64,000 bases of DNA, from the IMG/VR virus record IMGVR_UViG_2724679538_000004, positions 1-64,000 of that record. One strand, written 5' to 3'. Made by a program: the position numbers and the translations under genes. Shown here one piece after another: positions 1 through 47,394 of this stretch (its first letter is position 1; each line of letters starts with the position of its first letter). The notes under the pieces are model-generated. The model ran no database searches. It was given only the letters and a program-made list of their open reading frames with translations, and was not told the origin of the DNA. Source of the stretch: a virus. Lineage: Duplodnaviria > Heunggongvirae > Uroviricota > Caudoviricetes.

Positions 1-275
1 GTGGGGCGAAGCACCGGCAGGCATCCACAAACAGTGAATATTATTCATCCTGTCGTCTTGTTGTAAAAAAGAATGGTTCTGTAATTTATGACAAATCGAC
101 CAACGATGTTACAGCCATTTACACAGGTATCATGGATATGCCTGCTGGTAGAGGAGCACTAAAACTGGAGTTTTCAGTTTCTGCGTCAAACGGGAATTAT
201 CATCCTTCAGCGACTATCAGTGATCTACTAGTCATTGTGACGAAAAAAGCGACGGCTGGGATATCAATTTCATAG
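1..275 (+). CDS. partial CDS (3' end, 5' end outside window); hypothetical, possibly virion structural
   Basis: Frame open from window edge to TAG 273-275 (..SDLLVIVTKKATAGISIS*); directly upstream of tail fibre gene. Confidence 0.4.
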   Translation, partial: GAKHRQASTNSEYYSSCRLVVKKNGSVIYDKSTNDVTAIYTGIMDMPAGRGALKLEFSVSASNGNYHPSATISDLLVIVTKKATAGISIS

Positions 276-303
276 TGGCAAAAAATTATTCTATAGTGGA
301 AAA

Positions 304-321
304 TAGGTAAGTACTTAGCTA
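304..321. repeat. palindromic intergenic motif A copy (TAGGTAAGTACTTAGCTA)
   Basis: Matches recurrent TAGGTAAGTACTTACCTA element; 45 bp upstream of fibre start. Confidence 0.7.
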
Positions 322-366
322 TCAATGTGGGCATGGATGCCCACATTTTAAGGAGTGTAAAAGTAG

Positions 367-3300
367 ATGTGGTACAGGGAAGGTACTATTACCTTTACGC
401 AAGGTAAATCTACGCTTGTAGGCGTAGGCACAAAATGGAATATGACCGAGAATGGCGTTCTGCCTGGAATGATCGTCATTGGGCCAGATAATAAGCTGTA
501 TGAAATTAAACGCGTCATCAGCGACACTAATTTGACGCTAGTCGAGGCTTATACAGGAGAAACCCAAAGCGAAGTCCCTTGTCGTATTATCACCACTTAT
601 GAAGGCGATTTAACGCAATTCAGTGCTCGGTTTACGGCATTAATGAATCGTATGTCTGCCGATTCAAAGACAATGCGTAGTTGGTTGACAGCTCTTGATG
701 AGGTGACAATCGAGCGTGAAGACGGCACAGAAGTGACCGTTAAGCCTCTGATGCAGATCGTCAACGAACATAATGAAAACGTTGAGTGGTATAAAAATAA
801 CACTGACGCAATTGATGCCGCTGGCGACAAAGCTCGTGAAGCTGCGGCCAGTGCTGCGGTGGCAGCAGAAAGCGCCAATACCGCTGGAGAAAAAGCCTCT
901 CAAGCGTCTCAAAGTGCATCCGCTGCGGCAGATTCACAAAGTGCTGCAAGCGCGAGCGCAACTGCTGCAAAAAAATCTGAAACAAACGCAGAATCAGCAT
1001 ATGTAGCGGCAGCAGAATCAGCATCTTTGGCGTCGACTAAAGCATCGGAGGCGTCCACATCTGCGTCCAGTGCCTCTGCATCTAAGGATGCGGCTAAACT
1101 ATCAGAGACTAACGCTTCATCGAGTGCAAACGCGGCGGCATCATTTGCAACAGAAGCTGAAAATGCGTCTAAGGCAGCAAAAACATCAGAGACAAACGCA
1201 AAAGCATCTGAAACGGCCGCCGAACAGAGTGCATCATCTGCAAACAGTTCTAAATCTGCGGCGGAGGCGTCTGCGAGCGAAGCCTCTGCAAGCGCTGATA
1301 GTGCTTCATCAAGTGCAACTGCGGCAGGAAAGTCTGCGGAAAGCGCGTCGACATCAGCGGCAACAGCTACCGCAAAAGCGACAGAAGCGACGGAACAGGC
1401 GACGTTGGCCAGTGCCTCAGTTACAGCAGCAAAGACATCGGAAGAAAATGCTAAGGCTTCTGAAAAAAATGCTCAGGCATCAATGATCGCGGCGGCGGCA
1501 TCAGCTGAATCGGCAGCAAGTTCAGCAACGGAGGCTGTATCTTCTAAGGATGCGGCAGTGACAAAGGCAACAGAGGCAGCAGAGTCAGCTTCAACCGCGA
1601 CAACAAAGGCAAGTGAGTCCTCCGCCAGTGCTGATGCGGCAGCGAAGAGCAAAACAGCTGCGGAATCAGCGGCAACAAGAGCGGAATCAGCGGCTGAACG
1701 AGCAGAAGACATTGCGGCGGCAGTAGGGATTGAAGACGCAACTCTGACAACAAAAGGTGTTGTGAAGCTTAGTAGCGCAATCAACAGCGAGTCTGAGGAA
1801 CTGGCAGCTACGCCGAAAGCGGTAAAGGCAGCCTATGATTTGGCCAACAGCAAGTATACAGCACAGGACTCAACTACAGCTCAAAAGGGACTTGTCCAAC
1901 TTAGCAGTGATATCAATAGCGGTAGCGAAGCTTTTGCGGCCACACCAAAGGCGGTAAAAGCCGCATACGACAACGCTGAAACACGCCTTCGGAAAGACCA
2001 GAACGGCGCAGATATACCTGGGAAAGACACCTTCGTAAAAAATATTGGCGCGGCGAAAGCTGCCAGCGGCAATATCAGCATCGGAGGGGACAGCAATAAC
2101 TGGACGACGGCGCAATTTATCGAGTGGCTGGAGTCTCAAGGGGCGTTCAATCATCCATATTGGATGTGCAAAGGCTCCTGGGCTTACGCTGCCAATAAAA
2201 TCATCACGGATACCGGTTGTGGAAATATACAACTTTCTGGCGCTGTAGTTGAGGTTATGGGGGTTCGAGAGGCTATGACTATTCGCGTCACCACCCCCAC
2301 GACCGCAACGAACGGCGGAACCGTCAAGGCTCAGTTTACCTACATCAACCACGGTGACGCTTATGCGCCAGGCTGGAGACGCGACTTTAATCGAGCTGGC
2401 GATTCAATGTCAGGCCAATTGACTTTGGCGAATATGTCGCAGCCATTAAGATCACCAGGAGGTGGTATATTTGCCAATGATGGCAACGTGTATATCAATA
2501 AACAGGGTTTTGCTGGATGGATCGATGCGCTCTTTTTGAAATTAACCGGAGGCACTTTAACTGGTCCTCTTGCATTCCAAAATTCAAACGGCAAAGCATT
2601 TAGGGTGATGACGGATCATACACCTTCACTAAATACTTATATGCAAATATGGGGTGAATCTTCAAGGCCAACGGTTATTGAATTAAAAGATGAGAAGGGT
2701 TATCACTTTTACAGCCAAAGAAACACTAATGACTCTATTACAATGAGTATTAATGGTGAGGTGGTTTCCAGATCAGCAAATGCTTTCCGTGCCGCATACG
2801 GGAATTATGGCTTTTTCATTCGAAATGACGGAACGACTACTTATTTCCTACTAACCAATTCAGGTGATCCGCTTGGTGGGTGGAGTGGCTTGCGTCCATT
2901 GTACATTAATAACTCAACAGGACGAGTAACGTTTGGAAATGGCGTTGATATTAATAATGGGGCAGTAATTAACGGTGGTGTTGGACTGGGGGTGACTAAC
3001 GCTCTTGGCGGAAACTCTATTGTTTTAGGCGATAATGATACGGGCTTTAAACAGAACGGTGATGGCATTCTTGATGTTTATGCAAATAATGCCCATGTTT
3101 TTCGGTTCGTTAATGGCACGCTGCAAAGCCTTAAGCCATTGAGTGTAACAGGGGATATTGCGTCAAGTGCATGGGTTTACGCCAACCGTTATTCTATCAA
3201 CAGCGGATCTGGCGCATGGATTGATATGCGGAACCAGAACGTCATTTTCGGGAAGAATGCTGTAAGCACAAGCTCTGCACAGGCGTTGTTGAGACAAGAC

Positions 3301-3756
3301 CACGCGGATCGCAAATTCTTTGTGGGGGGCTTGGGAAACAGTCAGTTTGGCTTTTACATGATCAACAACTCACGTACAGCAAATGGCACGGATGCCAACG
3401 CATATCTCCAAAATGATGGTACTTGGGTTTGTGGAGGTAATGGTAACTTTAACGATGTTTATATCCGCTCTGATGCCAGACTTAAAAGTAATTTCGCACC
3501 GATTAAAAATGCTCTGAGTAAAGTGAAAGCACTGAGCGGATTAATTTACGATAAAAGGGAAAATTTTCAATCTAGTACGATTCGCCGTGAGGCGGGGGTT
3601 GTTGCTCAGGAACTCCAAAAGGTTTTACCAGAAGCTGTTTCAGCTTACAAAGATGCAAATGGCGAAGATGTTCTGACTATTTCAAATTCTGCGCAAATAG
3701 CACTTCTTATTGAGGCTGTTAAAGAGCTGGCAGCAATCATTGAACAAAAAATATGA
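367..3756 (+). CDS. tail fibre protein with C-terminal S74-type intramolecular chaperone domain
   Basis: 1129 aa; long Ala/Ser-rich low-complexity repeats; two TPKAVKAAYD phage fibre repeats; C-terminus SDARLKSNF...GVVAQELQKVLPEAV...AVKELAAII matches S74 chaperone pattern; RBS AAGGAG upstream. Confidence 0.85.
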   Translation: MWYREGTITFTQGKSTLVGVGTKWNMTENGVLPGMIVIGPDNKLYEIKRVISDTNLTLVEAYTGETQSEVPCRIITTYEGDLTQFSARFTALMNRMSADSKTMRSWLTALDEVTIEREDGTEVTVKPLMQIVNEHNENVEWYKNNTDAIDAAGDKAREAAASAAVAAESANTAGEKASQASQSASAAADSQSAASASATAAKKSETNAESAYVAAAESASLASTKASEASTSASSASASKDAAKLSETNASSSANAAASFATEAENASKAAKTSETNAKASETAAEQSASSANSSKSAAEASASEASASADSASSSATAAGKSAESASTSAATATAKATEATEQATLASASVTAAKTSEENAKASEKNAQASMIAAAASAESAASSATEAVSSKDAAVTKATEAAESASTATTKASESSASADAAAKSKTAAESAATRAESAAERAEDIAAAVGIEDATLTTKGVVKLSSAINSESEELAATPKAVKAAYDLANSKYTAQDSTTAQKGLVQLSSDINSGSEAFAATPKAVKAAYDNAETRLRKDQNGADIPGKDTFVKNIGAAKAASGNISIGGDSNNWTTAQFIEWLESQGAFNHPYWMCKGSWAYAANKIITDTGCGNIQLSGAVVEVMGVREAMTIRVTTPTTATNGGTVKAQFTYINHGDAYAPGWRRDFNRAGDSMSGQLTLANMSQPLRSPGGGIFANDGNVYINKQGFAGWIDALFLKLTGGTLTGPLAFQNSNGKAFRVMTDHTPSLNTYMQIWGESSRPTVIELKDEKGYHFYSQRNTNDSITMSINGEVVSRSANAFRAAYGNYGFFIRNDGTTTYFLLTNSGDPLGGWSGLRPLYINNSTGRVTFGNGVDINNGAVINGGVGLGVTNALGGNSIVLGDNDTGFKQNGDGILDVYANNAHVFRFVNGTLQSLKPLSVTGDIASSAWVYANRYSINSGSGAWIDMRNQNVIFGKNAVSTSSAQALLRQDHADRKFFVGGLGNSQFGFYMINNSRTANGTDANAYLQNDGTWVCGGNGNFNDVYIRSDARLKSNFAPIKNALSKVKALSGLIYDKRENFQSSTIRREAGVVAQELQKVLPEAVSAYKDANGEDVLTISNSAQIALLIEAVKELAAIIEQKI

Positions 3757-3818
3757 TAATGTTGGAGAGGCTAAAGCCTCTCCCATAATAAACTGTCATA
3801 ATATTTGAGAGGGTTATT

Positions 3819-4601
3819 GTGTCAATTACAAAAGTTCCTGGATGGATAGGATCATCAGCGGTTTCAGAAACAGGGCAACGTTGGATGAGTGCTGCCCGCA
3901 CCACAGTCCAATTGTCCGCAGCAGGAAATATGTCACAGATGGGTGGTAGGTCAAAAGAGATTTACTACTCAATAGGGGCTAATCACAATTATAACAAAGA
4001 CACATTAATATCATATTTACGCTCCGTTGGCTCTACACCTGTAGTAGTTACTATTACAGGGGATTTAGTTTCTATAAGCAGTACAGTCCCTTGTCTTGAC
4101 TTTCCGGGTGACTTATCAAACTCATATATTAACCTCGTAATTAATAGTGGAGTTACCGTATATGGACGAGGTGGTAACGGGGGTAACAAAAGTAATGGTG
4201 CTGCTGGGGGAACTGCCATAAATAATGGAATTGGGACTCGTTTACGTATTACAAACAATGGAGCTATAGCCGGTGGTGGTGGTGGCGGCGGTGCTACCTA
4301 TGTGAAATCAAGTCTTTCAGATGGAGTATATGGTGGTGGCGGCGGCAGACCATTTGGTACTCGTGGTGCTTCTTCTGGCCCCATGAGTTCAAATTCCACA
4401 GACGCTACTTTAACAGCGGCTGGTAAAGGTGCGGTGTCAAAGGGAACTGGTGGCGCAGGTAATGGTGGCAACGTGGGTGCCGCTGGCTCTAACGGATATG
4501 GTGGTGGGACAATGTATAATGGTGGTGCAGGGGGCAAAGCGGTGGCAGGTAGTGCGCCAACATGGATTTCAGTTGGGTCGATATATGGCGCTCGTGTGTA
4601 A
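3819..4601 (+). CDS. gp38-like glycine-rich tail fibre adhesin
   Basis: GTG start with RBS; N-terminus VPGWIGSSAVSETGQRWMS resembles T2-type gp38 (from memory); poly-Gly runs (GGGGGGG, GGGGG) separating variable segments. Confidence 0.65.
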   Translation: MSITKVPGWIGSSAVSETGQRWMSAARTTVQLSAAGNMSQMGGRSKEIYYSIGANHNYNKDTLISYLRSVGSTPVVVTITGDLVSISSTVPCLDFPGDLSNSYINLVINSGVTVYGRGGNGGNKSNGAAGGTAINNGIGTRLRITNNGAIAGGGGGGGATYVKSSLSDGVYGGGGGRPFGTRGASSGPMSSNSTDATLTAAGKGAVSKGTGGAGNGGNVGAAGSNGYGGGTMYNGGAGGKAVAGSAPTWISVGSIYGARV

Positions 4602-4612
4602 GTACTTACCTA
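4597..4612. repeat. motif A copy
   Basis: TGTAAGTACTTACCTA overlapping stop codon of gp38-like gene. Confidence 0.7.
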
Positions 4613-4675
4613 CAAAAATGGAAAGAATTGTGGTATAAATTCGCCATCCCGATTTGACTTTTCATGGAGGAAAAC

Positions 4676-4999
4676 ATGTCGAACGAGATGGCGGGAGTTA
4701 CAACTGAACAGGTTGAACGCATCGCCTCAATCGTTGCTCGGGAAGTCGTAGGCAAATTAGGTAAAGAAATACGCGAGGAAATTGGCCAGGAGGTCAACGA
4801 CCAGCTTAAAACCTATTTTGGCGATATGACACCAGCGCAACACAGTATCCAACACTCCAACCTGGACAAGCTTCTTAATCGGCTGGATTCAATTTCAAGC
4901 GGCTTCTTTGGCGGCGTTATTTCAAAAATAACGTCGTTCCTTATTACCGCTCTGATTTTGGGTATTGCTGCTTATGGCGTCAAAAATGGACTGAAATAA
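4676..4999 (+). CDS. membrane protein with C-terminal TM helix; possible holin-like lysis protein
   Basis: GGAGG RBS 5 nt upstream of ATG 4676; single C-terminal hydrophobic helix ITSFLITALILGIAAYGV; position at head of lysis cassette. Confidence 0.35.
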   Translation: MSNEMAGVTTEQVERIASIVAREVVGKLGKEIREEIGQEVNDQLKTYFGDMTPAQHSIQHSNLDKLLNRLDSISSGFFGGVISKITSFLITALILGIAAYGVKNGLK

Positions 5000-5012
5000 C
5001 AGGAGATCAAGG

Positions 5013-5705
5013 ATGAACACTCCAAGAGGTATTCGAAACAACAACCCAGGCAACCTTGATAAAGGTTCTCCGTGGCAAGGTTTAGTTGATAATCCGAATG
5101 AGCCGCGCTTTTGCACTTTCATAGATCCTGTTTGGGGGATTCGTGCATTAGCAGTGACGCTTATCACCTACCACGACAAACGTCGGGCTAAGGACGGTTC
5201 CAGCATAGATACTATCCGTGAAGTTATCGAACGCTGGGCGCCGCCTTCCGAAAACAATACGGCCGCATATGTGAAGGAAGTATCGAAAGCAGTAGGCGTT
5301 GATCCAGATACGGTTATCAACTTGCACAGGTACGACACTCTGCGTCCGCTGGTTGAGGCCATTATTCGTCATGAAAATGGCCGCGGTCCTCTCAAGACGA
5401 AAAATACCTGGTATTCAAATGAGGTCATCAACGAAGGCCTTCGTAGAGCTGGTGTTGTGAAGCCAGTGACGGCAGTTACCACTGTTCCAGTCACTAAAGA
5501 GACTGCCGGTGCTACAGTCACCGCAGGCATTGGCCTTGCACAGATTGCTGATGTTATGCCTCAAGTTTCTGCCGCAATGGACAAAGCTCAAGGCCATATC
5601 TCAAGTGGAGATACGGTACGCATCATTTTTGGCGTAGCTACCATCCTTGTGGCGGCGTTCATTGCCTGGTCCCAGGTTCGCAAGCATCAAAATGGATTAG
5701 TGTAA
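5013..5705 (+). CDS. lysis-cassette protein with NNNPGNL motif and C-terminal TM anchor (possible endolysin)
   Basis: AGGAG RBS; conserved-looking N-terminal RNNNPGNLDKGSPWQG; C-terminal hydrophobic segment; immediately upstream of spanins. Confidence 0.35.
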   Translation: MNTPRGIRNNNPGNLDKGSPWQGLVDNPNEPRFCTFIDPVWGIRALAVTLITYHDKRRAKDGSSIDTIREVIERWAPPSENNTAAYVKEVSKAVGVDPDTVINLHRYDTLRPLVEAIIRHENGRGPLKTKNTWYSNEVINEGLRRAGVVKPVTAVTTVPVTKETAGATVTAGIGLAQIADVMPQVSAAMDKAQGHISSGDTVRIIFGVATILVAAFIAWSQVRKHQNGLV

Positions 5706-5707
5706 GT

Positions 5708-5959
5708 ATGTTTGGCGGCCTGTTTTTCAAAGTTAAATCCGCTTTGTTCACTCTGGCCGCCGTCATTCTCGTCCTTGTCGGCGCATATTCCTATGGTGGG
5801 TATATGGTCAGGCGAAGTATGGAAGAGAAAGAACGGCGGGAAGATAACAAACGTCTTCAAAGCACAGTGGAAGTGGTGAATGAGACGAACAGTCAAATAC
5901 GTCAGAAAGATGCTTCTGCCGTTCATCGTGAGCTGCATGATAAGTGGTTGCGTCATTAA
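5708..5959 (+). CDS. i-spanin (Rz-like inner membrane spanin)
   Basis: N-terminal TM helix then charged coiled-coil-like region; o-spanin ORF begins inside its 3' end in another frame. Confidence 0.7.
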   Translation: MFGGLFFKVKSALFTLAAVILVLVGAYSYGGYMVRRSMEEKERREDNKRLQSTVEVVNETNSQIRQKDASAVHRELHDKWLRH

Positions 5960-6095
5960 GCCACAAACCACCAGCGTGTTGTTCTGCGATGGCGCTGAGC
6001 CTATATATATCAGCAATGACGATGTAATGACCGAAGAAACCGAACGCCAAATCCTTTTTCACAATACGATGGGAGAGAGAGTTTGCGGTTGGTGA
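5910..6095 (+). CDS. o-spanin (Rz1-like outer membrane lipoprotein)
   Basis: Signal peptide MLLPFIVSCMISGC with lipobox ISGC; overlaps i-spanin out of frame. Confidence 0.7.
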   Translation: MLLPFIVSCMISGCVIKPQTTSVLFCDGAEPIYISNDDVMTEETERQILFHNTMGERVCGW

Positions 6096-6131
6096 GGTTG
6101 ACAACTCCCCTCAATGAGGGGAGTTACAATT

Positions 6132-6650
6132 TTATTCGAACAATTTTTCGATAGATTTTGTTGGATAGAACAAAGAACGCTCGTTGTTACCAACAAGCTG
6201 AATAAAGCCTAAACTTTTATAAAAAGCCCTGGCATTATCATTCAACGCCTCAACGAAAAGTCCATGAATACCTACAGCAAGAGAGGCATTGTACACAACG
6301 CGCATTGCATGTGTTACAAGCATTGAGCCAAGTCCTTGACCTTGAAGAGATTTGTCTAAAGCCAGCCTGCCTAAAGTGACACTTGGTACATTCCGATAAG
6401 GCACTTTCTTTTGTTGACTCCTTGAAGGTAAGGCCTCCTTCTCAAAGCAGCTGCCTGACAAAGTGTAATAGCCTAATACTCTTGGCTTTTCTTCTTTGGT
6501 GCAAAGGACATAAGCCCGAAGAATTTTGCCCTCATGCTGTCTTTTCAGGTGGTTGGTTAAAAATGCGTTTAGTGACTCTTCGCCGCAATCAAAACCATTC
6601 AGATCATAATCTTTCTCTCCAGAGAAAATCTCTATCGTCGTATTGCCCAC
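6132..6650 (-). CDS. GNAT acetyltransferase toxin (TacT/KacT-like)
   Basis: 172 aa, GNAT-like motifs (QGQGLG); immediately downstream of DUF1778-like antitoxin in same operon. Confidence 0.7.
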   Translation of the reverse strand: MGNTTIEIFSGEKDYDLNGFDCGEESLNAFLTNHLKRQHEGKILRAYVLCTKEEKPRVLGYYTLSGSCFEKEALPSRSQQKKVPYRNVPSVTLGRLALDKSLQGQGLGSMLVTHAMRVVYNASLAVGIHGLFVEALNDNARAFYKSLGFIQLVGNNERSLFYPTKSIEKLFE

Positions 6651-6657
6651 GAGTAAA

Positions 6658-6927
6658 CTACTCCATGCTTTTCAGACGATCAGCAGCCCGTTTCAGCTTA
6701 TCGTTCGGTGCCGGAGGATTGCTTATAGCATCCATAACCAGATTCCAGGATTCCTCACTTAGAATCAGTCTACGGTGTTGTTCTATAACTTTCGCGGCAC
6801 GTTCAGAGGCACTGCTAACCATGAACTGGGTAATGCTCTGGTTAGACATTGCGGCAGCTTCCTCGATGATGCTTTTATCGTCATCGGTTAATCTCAAATC
6901 GATGCGCTGCTTTTTCAGTGCTGACAT
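6658..6927 (-). CDS. DUF1778/RHH-type antitoxin (TacA/KacA-like)
   Basis: 89 aa, precedes GNAT toxin with 7-bp gap; typical TA architecture. Confidence 0.65.
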   Translation of the reverse strand: MSALKKQRIDLRLTDDDKSIIEEAAAMSNQSITQFMVSSASERAAKVIEQHRRLILSEESWNLVMDAISNPPAPNDKLKRAADRLKSME

Positions 6928-7195: not shown

Positions 7196-7216
7196 AGAAA
7201 ACAAATTGTTTCAAAC
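7196..7216. promoter_or_regulatory. motif B palindromic operator/promoter element
   Basis: AGAAAACAAATTGTTTCAAAC upstream of parA. Confidence 0.5.
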
Positions 7217-11572: not shown

Positions 11573-12754
11573 ATGAGCCTCTATGTTATATCAACACCGA
11601 GGCTGGTCACAATATTGCCTGTTAAAAGTGAAATTGTCGTGAGTGAGCTGAGAGAACTTATTTCAGAACTGGATTTCGAACAGTGGTTAGATACTGAGGG
11701 CATTATCTATCGGCGTGGCGGTGTAAGTGCCAAAGGGCGTGAGGTAAATATTAAAGAGTGCCCTGTATGTGGAAGTACTAACTGGAAGGTTTATTTCAAT
11801 CTTAACAATGGGGTAGGTAAATGTTTTGCTGGCGACCATCCAGAAGAAATTCAGTTTAACAAGCTGGTATTCCTTAAGCACTACAGCGGTAAATCACGCA
11901 GAGACTTTGAGGAATATGTCCAGAACGCGCTGCTTTCGCAGGGATGGGCACCGAAGAAAGAAGAGATTGTACTTGTCAGCGAAGTCGAGTTAGAAGGACC
12001 AGTCGCTCTCCCTCGTCATTACGAACTTCCCATAGATGGTCGTTTGCCTGACTATTTGGTCGAACGCCACATTACACCAGAGATGGCACGGTACTTCGAT
12101 CTCCGATACTGCGTGGAAGGCAAACACGCTTATGTTGATCCCTATACAGATCAAGTGAAAGGTCAGGTATTTGATATGAGAATCCTGATACCTGTATACG
12201 ATCTAGATGGCGTGATGAAAACGTTTCAGGGGCGAGATATCACTGGAGAAGCTGAACGACGTTATCTATTCCCAATGCAATTACCAGCTTCCGGCAAATT
12301 CCTTTACAACGGCCACAATGCAGTAGGCAAACAGACTGTCGTTGTATGCGAAGGCGCATTCGACGTTATGGGCGTCAAACGTGCCATCTTTTCCGAAGAG
12401 ACTTTGCGCGAGTACGTAGAGCCAATTGGAACGTTCGGGATGCATTTATCTGGGACCACTACGCAAGATGCAGAAGACCAGCTTGGGGCATTCCTGACTT
12501 TAAAGGCGAGCGGATTACGTAATGTGATCATGATGTGGGACAGCGAAAAGCAAGCGATACGTAACACGATGTCTGCGGCAAGGCGGCTAACAAGCATTGG
12601 TCTGAATGTGAAAGTCGCCTGTCTTGGAGAAGAAGGACTCGACCCCGGCGATGCAACGCCGGAGCAGATCATCAAAGCCTACTATCGCGCCAAACCGTAT
12701 ACCAAACAGTTAGAACTGTTAAGCAAGATCAAAGGCATAGCGGCATTAGTTTGA
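11573..12754 (+). CDS. DNA primase (zinc ribbon + TOPRIM)
   Basis: CPVCGSTNW..CFAGDH zinc-binding motif; TOPRIM-like VVVCEGAFD and MMWDSEKQ; start chosen at ATG 11573 with conserved AAAAGAAAAACAC leader. Confidence 0.75.
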   Translation: MSLYVISTPRLVTILPVKSEIVVSELRELISELDFEQWLDTEGIIYRRGGVSAKGREVNIKECPVCGSTNWKVYFNLNNGVGKCFAGDHPEEIQFNKLVFLKHYSGKSRRDFEEYVQNALLSQGWAPKKEEIVLVSEVELEGPVALPRHYELPIDGRLPDYLVERHITPEMARYFDLRYCVEGKHAYVDPYTDQVKGQVFDMRILIPVYDLDGVMKTFQGRDITGEAERRYLFPMQLPASGKFLYNGHNAVGKQTVVVCEGAFDVMGVKRAIFSEETLREYVEPIGTFGMHLSGTTTQDAEDQLGAFLTLKASGLRNVIMMWDSEKQAIRNTMSAARRLTSIGLNVKVACLGEEGLDPGDATPEQIIKAYYRAKPYTKQLELLSKIKGIAALV

Positions 12755-13891
12755 AGTGGTGTCGGTCACGTACACATTGACCGAAAATGATTTAACCTCT
12801 GTTTTGAAATTATCCGTCATTACAGCAAGATAGGCATTCTTGGTATCTCTGAACTGTTTCAGGATGATTTGTACATTATCCGTGCAAACAAAAGAGGTGG
12901 CAAGATTGCCCCCTTTCTCTGAAAAATCTTTCAAAAATGTACAGTCGGCTTTGCCGCCATTGGCGGTAAAGGTGGCATCGTCTCCCTGCCAGATAAATGT
13001 TGCGTTAACGCCTTTATCAATAGATTTTGCAATGAGCCGCTGGGTGGCGGATTTTGCTTTAGGGTTTGCAGCTGGTGGTTGATATTTACCGCTTTCTTTC
13101 AGTTCCGCAATGTAATCACAGCCTTTTTTATCTTCTTTATCGCAAGCAGCCTGATAAAGCTCTGCTGCTTTTTTATAGTCCTTTTTAACACCCTCCCCAT
13201 TCTCATACATTATGCCAAGATTTGTCATGGCATCGGCGTTTCCGAGTTCAGCAGCTTTTTTATACCACTTAATTGCTTCGGCATCGTTGCGTTTAACACC
13301 TAAACCGTCATCGTATAAGGTGCCTAATGCGAACATGCCATCTGAACTACCTTGATCCGCCGCTTTTTTGTAATAAGTAAAAGCTTTTTTATAACTCTTT
13401 TGTACACCTTTACCATATTGGTAATACACACCAAGAAGGTAGCTAGCTTTAACATACCCGGCATCAGAGGCTAATTTGAAGTATTTAATGGCGAGCGCAT
13501 GATCTACTTTACCAAGCATCCCCTTTTGATAAATAGCACCAAGATTGTTGTAGGCTCTACCTTCACGAGCATCTCCCGCAAGTTTGTAGTACTCAACAGC
13601 TTTATTTAAGTCTTTATCTACACCCTCGCCAAATGTGTACATAACCCCAAGTGCATAATATGCTACTTTGTCTCCCTTTTCTGCAGCGAGATCAATCCAC
13701 TTCTTGGCCTCAACTACATCCTTATCAAAACCATTGATACCATCAAAATAATTTGTACCTAACTCACTTTGAGCTGCGGCATTTCCCGCGGTAGCGGCTT
13801 CTATCAGTGTTTGCTTATTGTCTGCGTTAGCGAATCCAGCACCAAAAAGTAAAGTTAATGCCAGCAACGATGATGGTTTTATGAATTTCAT
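12746..13891 (-). CDS. secreted Sel1-like repeat (SLR/TPR-like) protein
   Basis: Signal peptide MKFIKPSSLLALTLLFGAGFANA; at least five repeats of the type A.YYLG.MY..G.GV.KD...A..WYKKAA; opposite strand to neighbours. Confidence 0.75.
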   Translation of the reverse strand: MKFIKPSSLLALTLLFGAGFANADNKQTLIEAATAGNAAAQSELGTNYFDGINGFDKDVVEAKKWIDLAAEKGDKVAYYALGVMYTFGEGVDKDLNKAVEYYKLAGDAREGRAYNNLGAIYQKGMLGKVDHALAIKYFKLASDAGYVKASYLLGVYYQYGKGVQKSYKKAFTYYKKAADQGSSDGMFALGTLYDDGLGVKRNDAEAIKWYKKAAELGNADAMTNLGIMYENGEGVKKDYKKAAELYQAACDKEDKKGCDYIAELKESGKYQPPAANPKAKSATQRLIAKSIDKGVNATFIWQGDDATFTANGGKADCTFLKDFSEKGGNLATSFVCTDNVQIILKQFRDTKNAYLAVMTDNFKTEVKSFSVNVYVTDTTSN

Positions 13892-14123
13892 ATTTTTTGT
13901 TCTGTTGATATAGGATGAACAGTTTAGACGCGGCAAGCGTCAAGTTTGCGAAAAGAGTACTTAAATTTAGTTATTCTGTCAGCTTTGTTAATATAGTTTA
14001 TGGTTGGTAAAGTTAATAGATAACTAATAACTATAAGAAATAATGAGTTGTTCAATTATTGTGATACAACTCGTGTTTTGGTTAACTAATACCTACGATA
14101 AATATAAATTAAGGAAAGTCAAA

Positions 14124-45477: not shown

Positions 45478-47394
45478 ATGAAATTTCTAAAACTCCAGGT
45501 AGAAAATTTTATGGCGCTGGCAAGCGCCGAAGTAGATTTAGACCAACGAGGCTTGGTACTCATTCAGGGTGTTAACAGCGGCGATTCTTCTGCGGCCAGC
45601 AATGGCGCTGGTAAATCTACTTTGATGAACAGCCTGATGTGGTGTCTGTATGGCGAAACTGCGCATGGAGTCAAAGGTGACGACGTGCTGTCTACAGGCT
45701 ACGAGAAAAACTGTCGTGTAATGGTGACTGTTGAGGATGAAGGCAAGAGATACGCGATCATTCGTCACCGTAAACACAAAGAGTTCAAGAACCGGCTGAT
45801 CATCCGCGGTGAAGACGGTGACATGACCAAAGGCAAGGACACGCTGACGCAGGAGTTCGTTGAACGTCTGATTGGTGCATCGAAAGAGGTGTTCATGGCG
45901 TCTATCTACGCCAGTCAGGAAGCAATGCCAGATCTACCTGGGATGTCCGACAAAAACCTCAAAACCATCGTAGAAGAGGCCGCTGGTGTAGACAGACTAA
46001 CACGCGCTTACGCCATCGCTCGTGAACGTGCTAATGCAGCTGCCGCACGAATGGATGTTGTCAAAACCAAAATAGAGTCGGCCATTTCCACTATTGAGTC
46101 CACACAGTCCGAAATTGATTCCGCAAAAGCCTCTTCTGAGTCATGGGAAAAAGAACGTTCTAAGCGCTATGACGATGCCCTGGCTGGGTTGGCCAGTGCC
46201 GAGGTCGAATTAACGGAAGTCGAGCTTGAGATCCGCACTCTTCCCGAGCAAATCCGTGATACCGAGAAGGCAATCGAAAGTGAGCGCAATAAATTGGCAT
46301 CAAAAGAAGAGCATGATGCTAAGTTGCTCAAAGTTCGAGGTGCGATAACTGACATTCGGTCCAGCATCAAAGCTACAGAAAGAAGCCAAAATGACGCGAT
46401 GAATCGTGCCCGTAGTTTCAAAAACAAAGCGGAAGAGGTCAACACTAAAGTTGGCGCTCCATGCCCAACGTGTGGCAAAGCTTACTGCGAGGAAGATTTG
46501 TCAACCGTGAAGGAAAGCTTCATCGAACAAGCGCGGCAGGAGATTGGGCAGGCGAAAACGCTGGCTGAGACTATGGCTAAGCACAAATCGCATCTTGAGA
46601 AAGCATTAGGCATCGAAGCTGCTCTCGTCAAAGCCACACCTGATGTGAGCGCCATCATTACCAGAATCGAAGAGCTTACGAAGCAACTTTCTTCTCTACG
46701 CCATCGGGAGAAAGAGGTTGCTGCTATTGAGTCGCTTGTTGCTCGTGCTCGTGCTGATGTTGAGCGGATCACCAAAGAGATTAACCCGTTTATTGCTCTT
46801 ATCGCGAGACACGAGGAAAGCCTTGCGACACGCAAATCAGCGTACAAGTCATTGAAAGACGAATTGAAGGCCATTCAGGAGCAATCATTGCTGTTAGAGA
46901 AAGCTCGTCAGGTTTATTCGCCAGCAGGGGTACGCTCTCACATTTTGACGTCAGTTACGCCCTTCCTTAATGCACGTACCGCTGAGTATCTCAATACGTT
47001 GTCTGACGGGAATATTACTGCTGAGTGGTCGACGATGGATGTCACTAAAAAAGGTGAGTATCGCGACAAATTCAACATTAGTGTGCAGAAGAAAGGTTCA
47101 AGTAAGTCGTTCCAGACCCTCTCTGGTGGTGAGAAGCGGAAGGTTCGCATTGCGTGTTCTTTGGCATTGCAAGATCTGGTCAGTAACCGGGCGAGTAAAA
47201 ACATCGATTTGTTTATCGGCGACGAAATTGACGATGCACTCGATACAGCCGGTCTTGAGCGCCTCATGGGTATTCTGGAGTCCAAAGCTCGCGAGCGGGG
47301 TACTGTGCTGATTATCTCCCATAAAGAGATGAAGTCATGGTTCCGGGAAACGATCACTGTCGAAGTTAAAGAGGGGCGCAGCTATGTCGTTTAA
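45478..47394 (+). CDS. SbcC/Rad50-like ATPase
   Basis: Walker A NGAGKST, signature LSGGEKRK, central coiled coil with zinc hook CPTC. Confidence 0.85.
   Translation: MKFLKLQVENFMALASAEVDLDQRGLVLIQGVNSGDSSAASNGAGKSTLMNSLMWCLYGETAHGVKGDDVLSTGYEKNCRVMVTVEDEGKRYAIIRHRKHKEFKNRLIIRGEDGDMTKGKDTLTQEFVERLIGASKEVFMASIYASQEAMPDLPGMSDKNLKTIVEEAAGVDRLTRAYAIARERANAAAARMDVVKTKIESAISTIESTQSEIDSAKASSESWEKERSKRYDDALAGLASAEVELTEVELEIRTLPEQIRDTEKAIESERNKLASKEEHDAKLLKVRGAITDIRSSIKATERSQNDAMNRARSFKNKAEEVNTKVGAPCPTCGKAYCEEDLSTVKESFIEQARQEIGQAKTLAETMAKHKSHLEKALGIEAALVKATPDVSAIITRIEELTKQLSSLRHREKEVAAIESLVARARADVERITKEINPFIALIARHEESLATRKSAYKSLKDELKAIQEQSLLLEKARQVYSPAGVRSHILTSVTPFLNARTAEYLNTLSDGNITAEWSTMDVTKKGEYRDKFNISVQKKGSSKSFQTLSGGEKRKVRIACSLALQDLVSNRASKNIDLFIGDEIDDALDTAGLERLMGILESKARERGTVLIISHKEMKSWFRETITVEVKEGRSYVV

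Follow-up and report, generated by a model that had tools for sequence, protein, structure and literature searches.

Why should a tail fibre that carries its own chaperone be followed by a second gene for a protein of the fibre tip? The question arises from a locus near the start of the stretch of DNA analysed here, positions 1–64,000 of the IMG/VR virus record IMGVR_UViG_2724679538_000004 (Caudoviricetes; hereafter, the window of 64,000 nucleotides, nt). On the plus strand, a side tail fibre gene encoding 1129 amino acids (aa; positions 367–3756, recognised by Pfam, PHROGs and PDB matches) is followed by a gene with a GTG start codon encoding a gp38-like protein of 260 aa (3819–4601, + strand; Pfam, PDB and predicted fold). 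The original prediction regarded the two together as anomalous, on the grounds that a fibre ending in an S74-type chaperone should normally have no need of another. T2-type gp38, however, is an adhesin with no relation to the chaperones T4 gp38 and lambda Tfa, and the pairing is canonical in T2, T6, K3 and S16. Taken as a whole, the locus is best explained, with high confidence on our part, as a T2/S16-type two-gene receptor-binding cassette acting as side tail fibre in an SSU5-like phage-plasmid. The domain identities, conserved residues, fold, synteny and chimeric structure described below were all computed here.

The gp38 adhesin

The gp38 gene begins after a 62-nt gap from the fibre stop codon and encodes a protein in which 59 of the 260 residues are glycine. 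Residues 47–260 match the Pfam GP38 family (PF05268) with an E-value of 3.5e-70 over the full length of the profile (positions 1–218 of 218), whilst residues 1–41 match Gp38_N (PF21721; 1.3e-14). The protein also matches phrog_2056 (2.3e-89) and, from end to end, the gp38 of phage S16 (PDB 6f45_D; E-value 1.9e-47). GP38 and Gp38_N are the sole Pfam matches at E≤0.01, with no chaperone-family profile among them. On this evidence gp38 is a full-length adhesin of the T2/S16 type, and the suggestion that the gene following the fibre encodes a T2-type gp38-like protein with poly-glycine motifs and variable loops is borne out by the family matches, the S16 alignment and the comparisons that follow.

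Two parts of the protein can be distinguished. The N-terminal part (aa 1–107; 3819–4139, + strand), delimited by the Gp38_N match and by conservation, is a predicted attachment domain with a linker. It contains Trp9 and Trp22, which are invariant in an alignment with the gp38 proteins of T6, M1, JSE and others and are conserved in at least 90% of cases among 47 sequences. A role in docking has been described for the two N-terminal tryptophan residues (PMC7917993). The remainder (4140–4601, + strand) is, from homology and modelling, the receptor-binding domain, with Gly-rich motifs, variable loops and a predicted polyglycine-II sandwich. In both gp38 alignments the glycine columns are invariant and the loops between them variable, with five Gly-rich motifs in all, and the published layout of T2-type gp38 comprises four hypervariable segments (HVS) set between five glycine-rich motifs (GRM) (PMC3157838).

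An AlphaFold (AF2) model built on 47 homologues has a predicted local distance difference test (pLDDT) score of 92.2. A Foldseek search with this model recovers 6f45_D (E-value 7e-21; template modelling (TM) scores 0.78/0.82) and the receptor-binding domain of PP01 gp38 (9v85; 1e-19), and a polyglycine-II sandwich fold is accordingly predicted by the model. Of the fibre–adhesin complex for which structure prediction had been proposed, gp38 was modelled alone.

The S74 chaperone and the predicted cleavage site

The C-terminus of the fibre matches Peptidase_S74 (PF13884) at aa 1035–1091 of 1129, with an E-value of 5.7e-15 and a score (55.8 bits) well above the cut-off of 22. This defines a putative intramolecular chaperone (IMC) of 95 aa (aa 1035–1129; 3469–3753, + strand) at the extreme end of the protein. 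Its first residue, Ser1035, encoded by the TCT codon at 3469–3471, is the predicted nucleophile and lies within the sequence NDVYIR↓SDARLKSNF (the arrow marks the predicted cut), with Lys1040 five residues further on in the motif S-D-x-R-x-K (here SDARLK). Ser–Lys dyads of this kind are known from the endosialidase endoNF. HMMER aligns the motif with DLNVS↓SDRRIKKDI of S16 gp37 (PDB 6f45_A), which is the S16 cleavage site; in the Yersinia fPS phages the equivalent sequence is DVYIR↓SDGRLK (PMC7917993). The corresponding sites are NVYIR↓SDIRLKSNF in K3 gp37 and DVYIR↓SDRRSK in the SSU5 fibre SSU5_021, and the serine, aspartate and lysine are invariant in an alignment of seven fibres. Both the S74-type chaperone at the fibre end and the cleavage serine at 3469–3471 (given originally as RS/DARLK) are thus upheld, and by analogy with its homologues the fibre would cut itself at Arg1034/Ser1035 and release the chaperone. 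Alignment predicts that, once the fibre has matured, its new C-terminus and the docking face for gp38 are provided by the strand immediately before the cut, DVYIR (aa 1030–1034; 3454–3468, + strand); in both S16 and the fPS phages the strand preceding the cleavage serine has a described role (PMC7917993).

When a profile of the seven fibres was compared with the PDB, S16 gp37 (6f45_A; 3e-19), the protein MYRF (7dc3; 3e-9) and the IMC of phi29 gp12 (3gud; 8.8e-5) were recovered, and PDB searches with the IMC returned only S16 gp37, tail fibre 8jov, MYRF and phi29 gp12. The T5 pb1 and K1F chaperone domains had been proposed as references for alignment, but neither T5 pb1 nor the endosialidase (endoNF) came up at E≤1 when the PDB was searched with a single sequence or with the profile, which makes them no more than distant relatives. 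T5 pb1 and the K1F/endoNF endosialidase do resemble the fibre described here in having a C-terminal S74 chaperone that is, or here would be, cleaved off after trimerisation; they differ in that the mature fibre or spike itself binds the receptor and there is no separate adhesin gene.

A proposed cleave-and-cap fibre tip

In the mechanism that we propose, three copies of the 1129 aa fibre would trimerise with the assistance of the C-terminal S74 IMC, after which each chain would cut itself between Arg1034 and Ser1035, using the Ser1035/Lys1040 dyad, and the 95 aa chaperone would depart. The three exposed DVYIR strands would make a flat tip on which one copy of the 260 aa gp38 would dock through Trp9 and Trp22 in its N-terminal domain. 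Variable loops in the Gly-rich sandwich would then recognise a receptor on the host surface, most probably an outer-membrane protein, thereby determining host range. The adhesin in effect consists of an adapter and a swappable head: the adapter half stays with the resident fibre, whilst the head (nt ~4161–4560) has recently been exchanged with lytic phages of the T4-like group through recombination at conserved Gly-rich motifs.

Several observations on homologous systems lie behind this scheme. The S16 structure (PDB 6f45) contains three gp37 chains and one gp38 chain, in S16 the surface on which gp38 docks is uncovered by autocleavage of the IMC (PMC7917993) and the gp37 proteins of T2 and T6 are cleaved and then capped by gp38 (PMC3157838). 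Because removal of the IMC creates the gp38 docking site in S16, T2 and T6 (PMC7917993, PMC3157838), the co-occurrence of an S74 domain and gp38 is the rule. An S74-type fibre (gp37 in the T4-like phages) paired with gp38 is also found in K3, in the T4-like contigs L006 and L007, in the Escherichia coli plasmid pLAO59 and, with a shorter adhesin, in SSU5. By analogy with these homologues, gp38 would be present in the virion and docked one to three fibre chains, with a receptor of the class that they use. The proposal that the mature tip is capped by an exchangeable adhesin holds as a model. The arrangement is the standard T2/S16 design and the cassette is already annotated in databases; its novelty was overstated, although the phage-plasmid setting is less familiar and we found no paper on this cassette in phage-plasmids among open-access papers.

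Comparison with individual systems shows both what is shared and what is not. In common with S16 gp37–gp38 (PDB 6F45), the locus combines a C-terminal S74 IMC bearing the S-D-x-R-x-K motif with a gp38 gene directly downstream, and an adhesin with N-terminal Trp prongs and a predicted polyglycine-II sandwich; the 3:1 chain ratio of 6F45 would apply here also. S16, however, is a virulent T4-like myovirus, whereas here the setting is a phage-plasmid of the SSU5-like group, temperate and with a J-like tip, the two gp38 proteins are only ~42% identical and the shaft before the tip is Mu S-like here. With T2, T6, K3 and M1 the locus shares the design of a processed fibre (processed here, to judge by homology) capped by an adhesin of ~260 aa with five Gly-rich motifs and four variable segments, and K3 has in addition the similar cleavage site given above and a hairpin between the two genes. 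The gp38 proteins of T6 and M1 are 49–55% identical to that described here, which differs from the T-even adhesins in its GTG start and longer spacer, and the fibre is anchored at its N-terminus to the tail of a siphovirus rather than to gp36.

Salmonella phage SSU5, the prototype of the plasmid-prophage group, has the same order of genes, namely tail protein, fibre (SSU5_021), adhesin (SSU5_022), lysis genes and ParA. Its fibre tip reads NDVYIR↓SD and is followed by an IMC, and the N-domain of its adhesin is homologous. The SSU5 'tail fiber adhesin' is, however, a protein of 178 aa without the Gly-rich sandwich, and its 35% identity to gp38 is confined to aa 8–102.

Four points weigh against the cassette as we read it. 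Cleavage, incorporation of gp38 and receptor binding are carried over by analogy from S16, M1 and T6, whose adhesins are just 42–55% identical. Immediately ahead of the tip, the shaft is like Mu S and not like S16 gp37, so that the proposed docking geometry is extrapolated from only the last five or so residues of the mature chain. Expression of S16 gp37 reportedly made use of the T-even helper chaperone gp57A. Finally, SSU5 is reported to use the lipopolysaccharide (LPS) core, so an outer-membrane protein is not guaranteed as receptor.

Exchange of the adhesin head

The gp38 gene is a recent chimera, combining an N-terminal part of the phage-plasmid lineage with a head that it shares with T4-like phages. 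In a codon alignment, nt 3819–4130 are 93–100% identical to pLAO59 and 59.6% identical to gene 38 of L006, an uncultured T4-like contig that encodes gp34, gp36, gp37, gp38, holin T, AsiA, MotA and Ndd. The relationship is reversed across nt 4161–4560, which are 97.0% (388/400) identical to the L006 gene and 48–78% identical to pLAO59; a second T4-like contig, L007, is similarly close to this segment. Over the last 41 nt of the gene, identity to L006 returns to 66%. The breakpoints fall at 4151–4201, in the first Gly-rich motif (YGRGGNGG), and at 4531–4562, just past the last. Recombination near conserved motifs swaps specificity amongst the T-even adhesins (PMC3157838), and the breakpoints are, by position and sequence, of the kind described for those swaps. 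An assembly artefact was considered as the source of the chimera and rejected, as identical gp38 sequences are present on three independently assembled contigs.

A second swap is seen in the gp38 homologue P0009, which has the same phage-plasmid context: its head is 95% identical at the amino acid level to that of the RB49-like phage JSE, with N-domains that are 68% identical. Since a 97% identical head is found on adapter halves that are ~60% identical, and since P0009 and JSE share a head, we think it likely that the S74-fibre/gp38 cassette serves as a shared host-range currency of virulent T4-like myoviruses and temperate SSU5-like phage-plasmids, with heads moving recently and repeatedly by recombination at Gly-rich motifs. 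The head swap across lifestyles adds to what was originally proposed and is the only part that merits a short follow-up.

No cultured phage in INPHARED carries the head at more than ~66% nt identity (megablast and blastn), and PLSDB and E. coli RefSeq gave no plasmid match to it. The receptor can therefore not be deduced by similarity and, given the distance from cultured phages, may be new. The GC content at third codon positions (GC3) is 0.29–0.33 for gp38, compared with 0.40 for the fibre, 0.45 for the endolysin and 0.22–0.26 for T4-like genes; the proximity of gp38 to the T4-like values hints at a T-even origin, too weakly for us to claim one.

Also of note is an E. coli assembly (GCA_012483855.1, contig DABACS010000030.1; locus L009, 706–5777) that contains a siphovirus-like element with a T5 pb9-like distal tail protein and a J-like tip. 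Here the order is S74 fibre, an extra open reading frame (ORF) of 158 aa, then gp38, and the cassette therefore also occurs, in a variant layout, in a third type of phage.

Alternative explanations

Three other explanations of the locus were considered. The one that survives best, although we regard it as improbable, is that the fibre recognises two receptors: the shaft at aa 916–1034, which is like Mu S and P7 S', would bind LPS and gp38 would add a protein receptor. The close similarity of aa 916–1020 to the C-terminal region of Mu S (5yvq) and to P7 Sv' (65.6%) is consistent with this, as is the LPS core use ascribed to SSU5, but the homology ends short of the extreme tip of Mu S, leaving chain residues 448–504 without counterpart. 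Moreover, gp38 alone has been described as the specificity determinant in S16 and T2 (PMC7917993, PMC3157838).

It is very improbable that gp38 acts solely as an assembly chaperone outside the virion, in the manner of T4 gp38 or lambda Tfa, with the fibre itself binding the receptor. T4 gp38 and lambda Tfa do occupy the same gene position (PMC3157838), and several homologue records are named 'distal long tail fiber assembly catalyst' or 'tail assembly protein', but such labels are carried over from T4 naming. The protein belongs instead to the PF05268/PF21721 family of T2-type adhesins, with no chaperone-family match, its structural matches are to the S16 and PP01 adhesins, it retains the two docking tryptophans and the layout of GRM and HVS, and the fibre has an IMC of its own. 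Equally improbable is that the cassette is a decaying mosaic relic in which the S74 domain or gp38 is non-functional and only the J-like central fibre serves for adsorption. Some siphoviruses can do without side fibres, there being no functional stf in lambda PaPa (cited in PMC3157838), and some database homologues are partial (P0048, P0059 and P0077), but here both ORFs are intact with catalytic and docking residues conserved, the same gp38 is carried by three contigs, relatives are found in 87 plasmids of PLSDB and in 217 of the 5426 complete genomes of E. coli and the swapped head is just 12 nt in 400 removed from its T4-like copy and still in frame.

Distribution and significance

The 87 plasmids in PLSDB that carry gp38-like genes are nearly all non-mobilizable and, among the matches listed, mostly 105–120 kb in size; their hosts are Escherichia, Enterobacter, Citrobacter, Salmonella and Shigella, and the product name given by PGAP is "receptor-recognizing protein". 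In the 217 complete E. coli genomes that match part of the region, the match is almost always on a plasmid. One cluster of gp38 proteins (P0083; 155 members), seen on a 171-kb contig, bears the NCBI name 'receptor-recognizing protein [Bacillus cereus]', the Bacillus label most likely reflecting contamination of a Bacillus assembly by a T-even phage.

For annotation, a simple rule follows: a fibre that ends in an S74 domain need not itself be the receptor binder, and where a PF05268 gene comes next, it is that gene which encodes the specificity determinant. The known mechanism is unchanged by our findings. What the chimeric gp38 adds is that the shuffling of T-even phages at Gly-rich motifs also links lytic T4-like phages with the plasmid-prophages of Enterobacteriaceae, and therefore that receptor specificities, and bacterial resistance to them, would be shared across phage lifestyles. 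If so, plasmid-prophages, which can carry resistance genes, could gain receptor specificities with an origin in lytic phages, as could lytic phages from them, with a bearing on the design of phage-therapy cocktails and on predicting which strains plasmid-prophages can reach.

Mosaic structure of the fibre

The fibre matches three Pfam families, Phage_fiber_2 (1.8e-33), Gp34_trimer (6.7e-24) and Peptidase_S74. From its N-terminus, and always on the + strand, it comprises an SSU5-type anchor (aa 1–150, nt 367–816; phrog_3299 and phrog_22609), a rod rich in alanine and serine (aa 150–455; 38% Ala and 22% Ser by segment composition), two Phage_fiber_2 repeats identified by Pfam (aa 459–540), a Mu S-like segment (aa 535–678; PDB match to the Mu S chimera 8ju3), a trimerisation domain like that of T4 gp34 (aa 757–847, with the T4 gp34 match covering aa 757–880; Pfam Gp34_trimer, PDB 4uxe/5nxh), a stretch like S16 gp37 (aa 877–911; PDB 6f45_A), the distal shaft like Mu S and P7 S' (aa 916–1034; PDB 5yvq, P7 Sv') and finally the IMC. 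The rod was considered as a possible repeat array, an interpretation that was rejected in favour of a low-complexity protein because Tandem Repeats Finder detected no DNA repeat at 300–4700. Over its whole length the fibre is 86% identical in amino acid sequence to the pLAO59 fibre and 46% identical to SSU5_021.

Within the distal shaft, the match of aa 916–1020 to Mu S covers 5yvq residues 324–447, with an E-value of 8.9e-36 when the fibre's C-terminal portion is used as query. The fibres of Mu (S/U) and P1/P7 (S) thus have a highly similar distal shaft domain, but in Mu and P1 the chain runs on into a receptor-binding tip that depends on a separate Tfa-type chaperone for folding and is switched when DNA inverts. 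In the present fibre, the Mu/P1-type shaft appears from its sequence to end in a T2-type cleave-and-cap tip in place of the Mu receptor-binding tip. A Mu/P1-style invertible switch could be excluded: tblastn of gp38 and of the N- and C-terminal parts of the fibre against the whole window revealed no second adhesin and no alternative fibre segment, and the window therefore lacks a second cassette or invertible segment.

A block of 300 nt in the fibre gene (2767–3066), which takes in the last part of the gp34-like domain and what comes after it, is 85.7% identical to L004, an otherwise near-identical 109-kb metagenome contig, whilst adjoining blocks are 95–100% identical. The comparison marks this block as a further small patch of putative recombination within the fibre.

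The intergenic hairpin

Between the fibre stop codon and the ribosome-binding site of gp38 (GAGAGGG, 3807–3813, + strand) lies a stem-loop, GGAGAGGC-TAAA-GCCTCTCC (3764–3783, + strand). The RNA fold of 3745–3835 has a free energy of −26.4 kcal/mol (z = −5.0 against shuffled sequences). K3 and the T4-like contigs L006 and L007 have a GC-rich hairpin of different sequence at the same position, which in the K3 record is labelled a potential transcription terminator. A scan of 1–6200 for promoters and terminators gave counts like those in shuffled sequences, and the intergenic hairpin, lacking a T-run, was not among the features called. The hairpin and the GTG start may jointly reduce the production of gp38, bringing it nearer the 1:3 ratio.

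The element and its other genes

The order of genes in the window is that of Salmonella phage SSU5 and E. coli plasmid pLAO59, and the backbone is ~89% nt-identical to E. coli plasmids of ~100–110 kb; the element is therefore an SSU5-like phage-plasmid, with the fibre at the side-fibre position after a J-like gene. Of this J-like central tail fibre or tip gene the window contains the 3' end (3–275, + strand), comprising the last 91 codons in the frame-3 translation and ending in ATAGISIS and a stop codon. It differs at 4 of 90 residues compared from the C-terminus of a 1518 aa GpJ-like protein in L004, which has the Pfam domains Phage_Tail_Tip and Ig_GpJ_C and sits upstream of the same fibre. 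Between the stop of the J-like gene (275) and the start of the fibre (367) is a perfect 22-bp palindrome, ATGTGGGCATGGATGCCCACAT (325–346), followed by TTTT and the fibre ribosome-binding site AAGGAG (350–355); the palindrome could be a weak terminator or attenuator, or an operator.

Downstream of gp38 are an ORF in the holin position (4664–4999), an endolysin-like ORF (5013–5705) and an overlapping Rz/Rz1-like pair (5708–6095). A GNAT acetyltransferase toxin and TacA/DUF1778 antitoxin pair on the minus strand (6132–6927) separates this lysis cassette from a ParA-like gene that starts at 7206; the pair is kept in pLAO59 and in the contigs L004, L005 and L008 but is not at that position in SSU5. 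In the rest of the window, Pfam identifies a DnaB-like helicase, a ligase, a tyrosine recombinase, CobT, the alpha subunit of DNA polymerase III, a Rep3 initiator, an SbcC-like ATPase and ribonucleotide reductase.

Three further features lie well away from the fibre locus. A low-GC island at 20001–22000 (GC 0.336, against ~0.45 for the window) contains an ORF of 450 aa on the minus strand (20084–21436) that has no match in Pfam or PADLOC and may be acquired cargo. A Sel1-repeat protein of 396 aa (12746–13936; six repeats, E-value 1.3e-53), an unusual passenger for a phage backbone, is encoded on the minus strand amid replication genes on the opposite strand. Finally, the SMC/SbcC-like ATPase (45478–47394, + strand) also scores against the PADLOC model for LmuB of the Lamassu system (6.9e-25), but is probably a recombination nuclease of the SbcCD type and not part of a defence system.

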